Assembly (NCBI GenBank): GCA_030606485.1
Contig: JAUWGH010000006.1
Span: 1 to 32,000, forward strand
Source of the DNA: Promethearchaeota archaeon
GTDB lineage: Archaea > Asgardarchaeota > Lokiarchaeia > Sigyniarchaeales > SOKP01
Length of the DNA: 32,000 nt
Reading direction: 5' to 3'
The notes under the pieces were generated by a model. The model saw only the letters and a list, made by a program, of their open reading frames with translations, did not search any database and had not been told where the DNA came from. This document shows positions 16,357 through 19,148 of the stretch, piece by piece. Position numbers and translations under genes: made by a program. Positions within the stretch are counted from its first letter, which is position 1; every line of letters starts with the position of its first letter.

Positions 16357-16529
16357 GATACTATATTTTTTTCCTTCAAATTTTTTATAGATCTATATTG
16401 CGAAAATATTTCGCGAAATATATATTCTTAGAATTTTAAGAAAAAGATATATAGATAAACATTTTATATTTTTAACATAGATAAACTCAATAAAGAATGA
16501 AATATCTCCCTTTCGTTGAGAAAATAATT

Positions 16530-17720
16530 ATGAATAATGAAAAAAAAGAAAAAGATGATTCACTTTCAGATGCCCTATCCGCATTAGGTTGGATAGAAGA
16601 AGAGGAAGGCAAAGAAAGCAAGGAAGAAATGCCGTCTTCTTTGGAAGATCAAGTTAATTTCTTACTGAAAAAAAATAAGCAATTAGAAGAACAAAATTTA
16701 ATGCTAAAAAATTATATTGAACAGTTGGATTCAAGCTCCTCTAAAGCTGAAAAACCTGAAGTACCCGCCGATTTTGAGTCAAAAATTAATGAAAAAGATG
16801 GAATTATTTCTAAATTAACGGCAGAAAGAGATAACATTAAAAAAAAATTAAAAGAACAAAGAGAAAAAATCATTTCCTTGGATTTAAAAGTTGGGGAACA
16901 AAATGATATATTGATTGAAAAAGATAAACAAATCAATGAGTTTTCTATAGAATTTAGCCAATTAAATGAAAAGGAAAATCTAATCAAGCAACTTAAGGCA
17001 AAAATTAAGGAATTTGAATCAGGAGAACATGGTATTAGTGAATTTCAAGAAAAAATTAAACAACGAGATTCTCAAATTCAAGAACTTCATCAACAAATTC
17101 AATATCTTGAGAAAGATACTATCCAAAAGTCTAAGTATGACAAATTAAAAGTTATTATTGAAAAGAAAGATGAAATTATAACACAAAAAGAAAAAGCTCT
17201 TTTTGATAAAGAAAACTCTCTCAGTAAAGCAAAAGAAGAAATTAATGAATTAACAGGAAAAGTTAAAGAAACAGAAAAAATTCAAGAAAAAATAGCAGAA
17301 AAAAATGAAGAAATTAATTTTCTTAAAGGGGAAATAAATCATTTGAATCAACAACTTGAAAAATCCAAATCATTGCAAGATAAAATTAAAGAATTTGAAG
17401 AGCAACTTATTAAGCGAGAAACAGAAAATGTGGAAATCACTAAATCAAGCATGGTAAAAGAAGAAATTGTAAAAAGAGTTGAACAAAAACTCGAATTAGC
17501 TCAAAAGGAGAGTGTAAAAAAAGATATTGAAATTGAAAATTTGAAAATTAATTTCGAGAAAGAATTAGAAGCATTAAAGACTAAAGAGAATAGTTATCTG
17601 GATAACATTCAAATCCTTAAAATGGAAAATTCACGGATGGAAAAGGAATCTGGAAAACTAAAAGATGAAATAATTGATTTAAAAAAGAAAATCAAAGTTC
17701 TACGTAGAGGTAGTTCTTAA
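16530..17720 (+). CDS. Long coiled-coil protein (~396 aa), function unknown
   Basis: Near-continuous K/E/L/I-rich heptads and almost no Pro after residue ~90. The ATG at 16530 (MNNEKKEK) seems a more likely start than 16497, but either is possible. Confidence 0.75.
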   Translation: MNNEKKEKDDSLSDALSALGWIEEEEGKESKEEMPSSLEDQVNFLLKKNKQLEEQNLMLKNYIEQLDSSSSKAEKPEVPADFESKINEKDGIISKLTAERDNIKKKLKEQREKIISLDLKVGEQNDILIEKDKQINEFSIEFSQLNEKENLIKQLKAKIKEFESGEHGISEFQEKIKQRDSQIQELHQQIQYLEKDTIQKSKYDKLKVIIEKKDEIITQKEKALFDKENSLSKAKEEINELTGKVKETEKIQEKIAEKNEEINFLKGEINHLNQQLEKSKSLQDKIKEFEEQLIKRETENVEITKSSMVKEEIVKRVEQKLELAQKESVKKDIEIENLKINFEKELEALKTKENSYLDNIQILKMENSRMEKESGKLKDEIIDLKKKIKVLRRGSS

Positions 17721-17768: not shown

Positions 17769-18026
17769 CTACTTTTCGCGCCATTCACAGCCACACTTTC
17801 CACATTTGTATTTCTTACCCCAAATTCGAGGGTAATCGAGAACGATCACTCCCTTATCGACACTCTCGTGAATCATATGTTTAAGTACCTCACCACATTT
17901 AGGACATTTTCGACGTCCCTCTGGTTTTGGTACGGTTAATATATCTGAGAACTCTTCGCTTGGAGGAGGAGTTTCTGGTTCAGTTTCTTTTTCTGGTTCT
18001 TTATTTTCTTCAGACATTATATTCAT
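17769..18026 (-). CDS. Stand-alone Zn-ribbon protein, paralogous to the C-terminal domain of the adjacent gelsolin
   Basis: CPKC-x30-CGKC preceded by an acidic Pro-rich leader; 43 of the last 57 residues are identical to the gelsolin C-terminus (hand alignment). It may start at the Met at 18017. Confidence 0.8.
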   Translation of the reverse strand: MNIMSEENKEPEKETEPETPPPSEEFSDILTVPKPEGRRKCPKCGEVLKHMIHESVDKGVIVLDYPRIWGKKYKCGKCGCEWREK

Positions 18027-18182
18027 TATTTTTTATTTTGTATAAACATGCAATATGTATATCAAAATCATATTGGTTTACATATTAATCTTTTTGGATT
18101 AATAACGTTTTTCTGAATTAAAAAAATAAAAGGAAATTTAAAATAAATAAATTATTTTATTAGGGAATACTATTTCTTTAGG

Positions 18183-19148
18183 TTACTTCTCCCTCCACTC
18201 TGTCCCGCATTTTCCACACCTATATTTCTTGCCATATACTCTTGGGTAATCCATTATGATGTTATTTTTGTCAATGGTCTCATGAATCATATACTTAAGT
18301 TCCTCGCCACATTTGGGGCATTTACGCCGTCCAATGGGTTTTTCTACTGTTAAAATCCCAGTATCAACATCCATTGCAGTTGGGGTAGGGGGTTCTTTTA
18401 TAGGTTCTATTACCATTTCAGGTTCCTTTACTGGTTCAGGCTCAGGTTCTTTTACCGGTTCAGAGACTTCTTCTTTCTCTAATGCAGATTCTGCAGAAAA
18501 TTGTACATGTTCATCAACAGAGGTCTCAACTTTTTCTTCGAAAATTTTCATAAATTCTGAGTCGTCACCTTCCTCAAAAATAACTTCATTTTGTGATCCT
18601 GCTCTCTCAGCATCAAAACTTCTTGCCCATTGTCCGGCTTTTACTTTTTCTTTAACATTAGTATTCGCACCTTGCCAAATATAAATTTTATCGCCTAAAT
18701 CTGCAATAAAACAATCTTCAGAATCTAAACTTTCTTTTTTAAAGGGTACTTGGATAAATTTCATGGTATTTATATCTTCAAACTCTTCAGAAGAGACTCT
18801 ATAGAGTGTGTTTACATGCTCTCCCGCACCTGACCAATCACCAGTGTCTACATCAATGAGCATAGTCTTTGCTAAATTTTTATCTACGATTTTCATTCCT
18901 CCAACAAGTTGCAAAAACTCTTTAATCTCTTGACCTTGGTCAAGAGTGATGATTTTTGCAGCACCACCTCTTTTTCCATCCAATTCTCTAGCTTTCATTG
19001 CCGCAAATGTTTTTTCATCTACTGAACAATATTTGCCAAGCCATATATAAATTGTTTTTTCATCATCAACAATATAAGTATCTCCAGAGGAAAATATTGG
19101 CTTATTTACTTCCTTTAATTCACCCTTAGCAACTATATATATTTTCAT
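18183..19148 (-). CDS. Two-domain gelsolin (Asgard 2DGel-like actin regulator) with a Glu/Pro linker and C-terminal Zn ribbon
   Basis: Two gelsolin-repeat signatures, FSSGDTYIVDDEKTIYIWLGKYCSVDEKTFA and LDSEDCFIADLGDKIYIWQGANTNVKEKVKA; EPVKEP repeats; CPKC…CGKC. Confidence 0.88.
   Translation of the reverse strand: MKIYIVAKGELKEVNKPIFSSGDTYIVDDEKTIYIWLGKYCSVDEKTFAAMKARELDGKRGGAAKIITLDQGQEIKEFLQLVGGMKIVDKNLAKTMLIDVDTGDWSGAGEHVNTLYRVSSEEFEDINTMKFIQVPFKKESLDSEDCFIADLGDKIYIWQGANTNVKEKVKAGQWARSFDAERAGSQNEVIFEEGDDSEFMKIFEEKVETSVDEHVQFSAESALEKEEVSEPVKEPEPEPVKEPEMVIEPIKEPPTPTAMDVDTGILTVEKPIGRRKCPKCGEELKYMIHETIDKNNIIMDYPRVYGKKYRCGKCGTEWREK
18390..18475 (-). repeat. Imperfect coding repeat, EP(V/I)KEP x3, in the gelsolin linker
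   Basis: The protein reads SEPVKEPEPEPVKEPEMVIEPIKEPP; the + strand DNA shows recurring ggttc…ttt(t)a…ggttc units. Confidence 0.6.

Follow-up and report, generated by a model that had tools for sequence, protein, structure and literature searches.

The gelsolin locus and its free-standing neighbor

The window analyzed here, i.e., the first 32,000 nucleotides of contig JAUWGH010000006.1 from the genome of a Promethearchaeota archaeon (GenBank assembly GCA_030606485.1, forward strand; GTDB class Lokiarchaeia, order Sigyniarchaeales), contains two adjacent genes on the minus strand that end in the same small cysteine-containing domain. One of them (18183..19148) encodes a gelsolin of 321 amino acids (P0001), and the other (17769..18026), located directly downstream, encodes a protein of 85 amino acids (P0002) in which the domain stands free. 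We refer to this domain as the Zn domain and to the second gene as the free gene.

In the gelsolin, Pfam Gelsolin (PF00626) matched two N-terminal stretches (E 6.9e-27), and alignment to PDB 7WHG chain G and to eukaryotic gelsolin/villin G1-G2 placed two gelsolin repeats at approximately residues 1-205 (18534..19148). They are followed by an acidic Pro-rich linker with EPVKEP-like repeats (approximately residues 206-264; 18357..18533) and by the Zn domain with its CPKC...CGKC signature (residues 265-321; 18186..18356; profile match E 1.1e-33). Residues 1-321 are collinear with residues 1-335 of 7WHG chain G (phmmer, E 6.4e-120), linker and Zn domain included, with the Zn domain aligning to residues 277-335. 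The linker occupies the position of the "Link" of Loki2DGel and MKD1-2DGel, and its length differs among the genomes of the window's genus. Judged by its sequence, the protein is a full-length orthologue of Loki2DGel, the Lokiarchaeal two-domain gelsolin type. It shares with Loki2DGel and MKD1-2DGel the two repeats, the acidic linker and a C-terminal (CxxC)2 domain with a Tyr-tipped loop; the EP-repeat linker is shorter than that of Loki2DGel (321 versus 335 amino acids in total).

Loki2DGel was described by Akil et al. 2022 (Commun Biol 5:890; PMC9433394) as a protein in which a linker connects two gelsolin domains to a potential zinc-binding domain, and Ca-regulated actin severing and sequestering were demonstrated for both Loki2DGel and MKD1-2DGel. 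According to the same work, homologues of the Zn domain are widespread in Lokiarchaeal proteins, exclusively at the C-termini of otherwise unrelated carriers; proteins composed of the Zn domain alone exist, including a form of 64 amino acids; and the domain has a conserved extended loop with Tyr at the tip and is not consistently present beyond Lokiarchaea. The zinc in the domain was only modelled. We found no paper on the Zn domain after this publication. Thus, the window adds no new kind of element, since the Zn domain and its free form have been known since 2022; a free paralogue located directly downstream of the gelsolin, as in the window's genus, is not mentioned in that paper.

Conservation of the free gene

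The free protein consists of an acidic Pro-rich leader (residues 1-28; 17943..18026), which is conserved within the genus, and the Zn domain (residues 29-85; 17772..17942), which is supported by a profile match (E 4.6e-33) and an AlphaFold2 (AF2) model. Orthologues of exactly 85 codons occupy the same position in two other genomes of the genus (G001 and G002) and on an independent contig (L008), where the gene order is the same and the protein is 93% identical; the frame is unbroken in all four genomes or contigs. The ratio of nonsynonymous to synonymous divergence (dN/dS) in pairwise comparisons of these orthologues was 0.08-0.13, with dS reaching 1.06. The leader gave ratios of 0.11-0.14 where they were computable, and the gelsolin repeats of the neighboring gene gave ratios of 0.06-0.18. 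All four Cys residues and every family-invariant residue are retained in the free copy. By these measures, the free gene is under purifying selection.

The two genes are separated by a spacer of 156 bp (18027..18182), 153 positions of which are identical in two near relatives. Compared with G001, 139 of the 156 positions (89%) are identical, while dS in the flanking genes is 0.35-0.73, and the spacer is therefore more conserved than the synonymous sites on either side. Past the stop codon of the gelsolin it has an oligo-T run, TTTTATTTTTTT (18120-18131), and a TTTATA hexamer (18041-18046) precedes the first ATG of the free gene by 20 nt. These elements would correspond to an archaeal terminator and a TATA box, respectively, so the free gene probably has its own promoter and the two genes are probably transcribed separately. 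Given this reading of the hexamer, the true start may be leaderless and lie at the second ATG (18017), yielding a protein that begins with MSEEN..., which resembles the MSEE/MGEE N-termini of the 64-amino-acid homologues. A scan with sigma-70-type promoter and terminator models gave nothing above shuffled sequences, although such a model is not meaningful for an archaeon.

Age of the paralogy

The preliminary description of this locus had presented the two Zn domains as a duplicated pair, both with an acidic Pro-rich leader and with many conservative or synonymous differences, which suggested that both are maintained. The shared domain of 57 residues at the ends of adjacent genes is confirmed: residues 265-321 of the gelsolin and 29-85 of the free protein align without gaps, with 43 of the 57 positions identical and 51 positive (BLASTP, E 9e-32). 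The 171 aligned bases are 69% identical. The 53 differences include 32 at third codon positions and fall into 36 codons, which differ synonymously in 22 cases and nonsynonymously in 14, in agreement with the earlier statement. The maintenance of both copies is likewise borne out by the dN/dS values and the spacer conservation given above. A comparison of the two copies with each other, which had been proposed as a check, yielded a dN of ~ 0.2 and saturated dS, indicating an old and constrained pair and no fresh duplicate.

The term "duplicated" therefore holds in the sense of old paralogy but not of recent duplication. In a careful tree of 57 rows and the 60-column domain, the free copies of the genus formed one clade (support 99/95) and the gelsolin tails of the genus another (97/89); hence, the paralogy predates the radiation of the genus. 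The best tree did not place the two clades side by side, but a forced sister relation was not rejected (approximately unbiased (AU) test, p 0.28). For the origin of the 85-amino-acid copy, the AU tests in this tree gave p values of 0.28 and 0.14. A quick tree built from 165 rows did not prove stable, with a constrained tree scoring above the free search.

An acidic Pro-rich segment does precede the domain in both proteins, but its similarity between leader and linker does not exceed what composition alone provides (558 of 5000 shuffles scored as high). The two segments thus show no demonstrable homology of the kind that would indicate a partial tandem duplication. Recent gene conversion between the window copies, for which a shared "EELK" stretch had made a candidate, was also rejected, as that stretch is full of synonymous differences.

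The gelsolin tail was also compared with that of another genome of the genus. Between the window (18186-18356) and locus L024 of G001, dN was 0.16 for the tail and 0.04 for the gelsolin repeats of the same gene, and dS was 2.4 versus 0.35, the tail comprising only 57 codons. This suggests that the tail has had a history or a rate other than that of the repeats.

The Zn domain family

Across the 60 alignment columns of the free and fused forms taken together, 10 positions are invariant and 15 nearly invariant. The (Cys-X-X-Cys)2 motif is present in both window copies as CPKC...CGKC, and its four Cys residues are invariant in 21 sequences, which makes zinc binding by the domain plausible. The segment DYPR(V/I)(Y/W)GKKY is nearly invariant; the free copy of the window has W for the second Y. 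When a profile of the 21 domains was searched against PDB, the sole strong match was 7WHG_G 277-335 (E 3.7e-31), with the next match at 2e-3.

Each of the 31 related genomes in the window's order matched the domain profile (3-11 copies per genome), and free Zn-domain proteins were present in every genome searched in this order. In a sample of 151 genomes from the phylum, strong multi-copy matches were confined to the same order (25 of 25 genomes in family f1 and 2 of 2 in family f2), and the other families gave one weak match of ~ 60 amino acids or none. This census agrees with the published statement that the domain is not consistently present beyond Lokiarchaea. A wider spread, as suggested by the NCBI labels "Hodarchaeota", "Thorarchaeota", "Hermodarchaeota" and "Odinarchaeota" on some hits, was considered and rejected because the genome census does not support it. 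The NCBI organism labels on several metagenome-assembled genomes (these four and Heimdallarchaeota) disagree with the genome grouping and should not be taken to indicate occurrence of the domain outside Lokiarchaeia.

Among 1.84 billion representative proteins, 362 clusters matched the domain at E<=1e-3. The domain lay no more than 10 residues from the C-terminus in 147 of the best 150 representatives, of which 18 were not longer than 100 amino acids. The 113 long representatives included three gelsolins, one Ras/Roc, one TPR and one LRR protein, and the others were coiled-coil or had no Pfam family. The window's genome alone harbors seven copies on four kinds of carrier: the gelsolin, the free gene, a 326-amino-acid fusion with a Ras-like protein (see below) and four coiled-coil proteins. 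Thus, by sequence, the Zn domain forms a Lokiarchaeal family with sharp conservation and is no generic Zn ribbon; the domain census suggested in the preliminary description, which had left the latter possibility open, comes out in favor of a C-terminal family on many carriers.

The coiled-coil proteins (293, 253, 260 and 119 amino acids) carry a divergent version of the domain that ends in ...CxxCG(Y/E)EF (C2:324751-324915, C13:42708-42854, C10:169075-169209 and C4:183673-183822, respectively; L032-L035). Its motif can be written as ...R(V/I)(I)CPxCG...YAKKxICxxCG(Y/E)EF. In two of the four frames, recovered by a six-frame search, there is one in-frame TAA upstream.

Free homologues of 63-67 amino acids are 59-73% identical to the free copy of the window, and most of them lack the leader. 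The published 64-residue protein TFG08877.1 (Fig. 1e of Akil et al. 2022), compared by description only, is likewise a free-standing Zn domain; the window protein differs from this form in its acidic Pro-rich leader of 21-28 residues and in its position behind a gelsolin gene instead of a Ras-like gene.

In the AF2 model (predicted local distance difference test (pLDDT) score of 84), the domain adopts a zinc-ribbon fold of three strands, and the conserved DYPR...GKKY segment falls into a long beta hairpin (E26-37/E42-49). A Foldseek search against PDB gave best E values of 0.58-0.9 with TM-scores of 0.48-0.54, and VIA-align gave best Z-scores of 4.1 (NrdR) and 3.2-3.5 (TFIIS), all of which fall into the chance range for a small domain. 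The modelled topology resembles that of TFIIS/Rpb9-type ribbons at chance-level scores. With generic ribbons (the TFIIS C-terminal domain, Rpb9, the NrdR N-terminus, Rpp21 and L44e), the model shares two CxxC knuckles, a three-stranded sheet and a long hairpin, whereas RRxCP, IHE and DYPRxYGKKY are specific to the Lokiarchaeal family, and neither sequence nor structure gives a significant match. The HVO_2753-like proteins (PF07754, formerly DUF1610) are also small archaeal CxxC...CxxC proteins, and one Joint Genome Institute record labels a free homologue "DUF1610 family". However, the free protein scored 19.1 bits against HVO_2753_ZBP (E 0.0011) and the gelsolin 14.4 bits, below the cut-off of 33.2, and by the Pfam rule they are not members.

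Co-variation of the two copies within genomes

Another important question is whether the free and the gelsolin-borne domains evolve in concert. Under plain divergence after an old duplication, a free copy should resemble the gelsolin tail encoded in the same genome no more than it resembles the tails of other genera. We compared 15 genomes from 10 genera, counting one genome per genus. In 9 of the 10 genera, the free copy was closer to the own-genome tail than cross-genus pairs were, by 5.3 percentage points on average (sign test p 0.011; Wilcoxon p 0.005; 0 of 20000 label permutations reached the observed mean). The shared lineage-specific states are spread across the variable positions; for instance, both copies have RRV in one genus, and both have CGCVW in another genome. 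Synonymous sites between the free copy and the gelsolin tail were saturated in 12 of 12 genomes, and the longest identical DNA run did not exceed 18 bases, so recent gene conversion is not the cause of the co-variation. These observations provide modest positive evidence, drawn from sequence comparison, that the free and gelsolin-borne copies are under a common constraint, e.g., one partner, and they fit the shared partner that the preliminary description had proposed.

Gene order: gelsolin or Ras-like neighbor

The tandem of gelsolin and free gene on the same strand was found in the same-genus genomes G000, G001 and G002 and on one independent contig; the window's genus was the only one in which it was seen. 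Elsewhere in the family, the gelsolin and the free gene are on different contigs, with the free gene behind a Ras-like gene. At 7 of 7 loci outside the genus, the free gene of 63-67 amino acids directly follows, on the same strand, a gene for a protein of ~ 200 amino acids. In the original Lokiarchaeum data, the tags LCGC14_1050650 and LCGC14_1050660 are consecutive, which is consistent with this order. P0004 and P0031, the nearest free homologues from outside the genus, come from contigs of less than 1 kb.

The ~ 200-amino-acid protein is no gelsolin and matched no Pfam family at E<=0.01. Its model has a small-GTPase fold (AF2, pLDDT 91.4), for which Foldseek returned Rac1, Rac3, Cdc42, RhoA and Rab43 (E ~ 1e-9, TM-scores 0.6-0.66). 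The P-loop is variable (GSRNSGKE, GSKDSKKE, GNIDNNKR and others), GK[ST] is never present, and GxD stands in place of NKxD. Since neither motif is conserved, the protein is probably a pseudo-GTPase. It shares homology with the first 200 residues of the fusion protein in the window's genome (BLASTP, E 7e-25 and 1e-18). The fusion lies outside the window (C12:156569-157549, minus strand; L003:1492-2472) and consists of a degenerate Ras-like domain, a linker of ~ 70 amino acids and the Zn domain, and such fused Zn domains cluster with the free proteins in the tree (86/71). Just downstream of it, a gene on the minus strand (L003:532-1251) encodes a protein of ~ 240 amino acids with seven hydrophobic segments and no Pfam family. 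Homologues of this protein occur 0.7-3 kb downstream of the free gene at 4 of the 7 other loci, on the same strand as the pair (L017:3438-4181, L019:4507-5217, L009:8131-8916 and L013:7494-8198). In the simplest history, the Ras-like and free Zn genes were fused in the window's genus, and the 85-amino-acid gene is a second free copy.

These data raise a key question: does the free protein belong to the gelsolin at all? Elsewhere, the free gene belongs with the Ras-like protein, and its association with the gelsolin may be incidental. In that case, the free protein would be the small subunit of a module composed of the dead Ras-like protein and, often nearby, a seven-helix membrane protein; in the window's genus, the original free gene would have fused to the Ras-like gene, and a spare copy would happen to lie beside the gelsolin. 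We regard this explanation as possible but on balance doubtful. It draws on the constant order at the seven loci, with which the LCGC14 tags agree, on the fusion, whose Ras-like part matches the free-standing Ras-like proteins and whose Zn domain groups with the free ones, on the small-GTPase fold that lacks a conserved P-loop GK[ST], and on the recurrent seven-segment neighbor. On the other hand, neighborhood and fusion do not demonstrate physical binding, and the AU tests leave the origin of the 85-amino-acid copy between alternatives. Moreover, the presence of the same domain on the gelsolin and on coiled-coil proteins would be unexplained unless the module is itself the common dock. A complex prediction for the Ras-like protein of G014 and its neighboring free Zn protein returned a score of 0.00 without controls and is evidence neither way.

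Alternatively, the free copy could be a built-in regulator of the gelsolin that competes for the dock of its tail and tunes the place and time of severing, with adjacency ensuring co-regulation. The conserved tandem in the genus and the within-genome co-variation fit this explanation, as does one locus of a sister family: in a genome consisting of one contig (L018; G026:C1:4001500-4008000), a gelsolin-Zn gene of 347 amino acids lies tail-to-tail with a free Zn gene of 66 amino acids, ~ 150 bp apart, and the two Zn domains cluster together in the quick tree. The proximity to gelsolin thus either has several origins or dates back further than it seems. Nevertheless, we consider a gelsolin-specific regulator rather unlikely. 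The tandem is missing in the other genera of the family, where the usual tie of the free gene to the Ras-like protein weakens the argument from adjacency; the two window genes are probably separate transcripts; and with at least five other carriers of the Zn domain in the genome, competition would not be specific to gelsolin.

The Zn domain as a putative docking tag

Taken together, the observations are reasonably well explained if the Zn domain serves several proteins as a C-terminal docking tag and the free copy uses the same putative partner, and we find this explanation somewhat likely to be correct. The free gene of 85 amino acids would be an old, selected paralogue of the gelsolin Zn domain. 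The invariant surface of the domain comprises the GRRKCP knuckle, IHE and the Tyr-tipped DYPRxYGKKY hairpin; through this surface, the gelsolin, the dead Ras-like protein and several coiled-coil proteins would all attach to a single cellular partner. The free protein would occupy that site too, either as a competitor or as a subunit or adaptor that stands alone, and we favor the stand-alone subunit because the usual genomic partner of the free gene is the Ras-like protein and not the gelsolin. We infer such a tag from the domain homology, the selection, the C-terminal placement, the multi-copy state in one order and the co-variation. The idea of a shared partner for the Zn domain was already put forward in 2022 (PMC9433394).

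Several points weigh against this explanation. The docking partner is hypothetical. Expression of the free gene is suggested by selection and promoter-like sequence. The co-variation rests on 10 genera only, and old gene conversion or a lineage-specific amino-acid bias is a possible cause of it. The fold offers no functional pointer, as its structural neighbors are generic zinc ribbons only. In eukaryotes, small domains such as the villin headpiece follow the gelsolin repeats via a flexible linker and add a binding activity. The Lokiarchaeal Zn domain resembles such C-terminal add-ons in principle, being appended after the repeats via a linker; however, its fold is unrelated, it also occurs on non-actin proteins, and the Zn domain of Loki2DGel did not bind rabbit F-actin in vitro (PMC9433394). 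In addition, the domain was disordered and gave no interpretable density in the Loki2DGel crystal (PMC9433394).

The common constraint could, in principle, also arise if the Zn domains bind one another. In that case, they would be self-association modules that use the long hairpins, the carriers would be cross-linked, and the free copy would cap or bridge them. Many of the carriers are coiled-coil proteins and hence oligomeric, co-variation of paralogues within a genome is expected for mutual contact, and the exposed beta hairpin of the model could extend a sheet. We nevertheless consider self-association quite unlikely: actin bundling was not seen with the full-length gelsolins (PMC9433394), although dimers formed through the tails might be expected to bundle.

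It is very improbable that the domain is a nucleic-acid-binding ribbon of the TFIIS, Rpb9, NrdR or small archaeal zinc-finger kind and the free protein a regulator outside the cytoskeleton. The nearest structural neighbors (NrdR, TFIIS, Rpb9, Rpp21 and L44e), the weak Pfam match to HVO_2753_ZBP and the basic RRK knuckle are compatible with such a role, yet all of these matches are below significance (Z <=4.1; 19.1 versus 33.2 bits), and the C-terminal placement on gelsolin, Ras-like and coiled-coil proteins does not suggest it. Finally, an unexpressed, decaying remnant of a partial duplication, to which the shortness of the ORF and the fact that no Shine-Dalgarno sequence was noted upstream of it might point, is a negligible prospect in view of the low dN/dS at dS values of up to 1.06, the frame intact in four genomes or contigs, the conserved upstream region and the retention of the four Cys and the family-invariant residues.

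Returning to the docking tag, it is tempting to combine it with the Ras-like neighborhood. The Zn domain could be the plug of a Lokiarchaeales-specific recruitment system whose socket is formed by the dead Ras-like protein and the seven-helix membrane protein, with the free Zn protein setting the number of open sockets. Such a scheme is speculative and, as it stands, improbable. If it is true, Zn-tagged proteins (gelsolin, long coiled-coil, TPR and LRR proteins) would be docked at a membrane-side socket, and a receptor-like membrane protein would be coupled to the actin cytoskeleton, in analogy to effector recruitment by Rho GTPases.

Asgard gelsolins are among the few archaeal actin regulators that have been studied experimentally and bear on the origin of eukaryotic cell architecture, and the role of the Loki-specific Zn tail is an open point of the 2022 structural work. 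The search for a partner is now narrowed to that of an order-specific, strictly C-terminal tag with many carriers and a shared constraint, the free form of which is tied to a dead GTPase-like protein. Lokiarchaeia are now in culture.

Further observations near the gelsolin

A small ORF of ~ 110-145 amino acids with a divergent Zn domain shares a contig with the gelsolin, at a distance of 4-11 kb, in many genera of the family (G005:C25, G006:C51, G012:C25, G014:C5, G016:C181, G017:C35 and G165:C36). The probable counterpart of this ORF in the window's genome (119 amino acids) is 165 kb away. On the other side of the free gene, a plus-strand gene (16497-17720) encodes a coiled-coil protein of 407 amino acids that has no Zn domain; it converges on the free gene with a gap of 48 bp and is also kept in the near relative L008.

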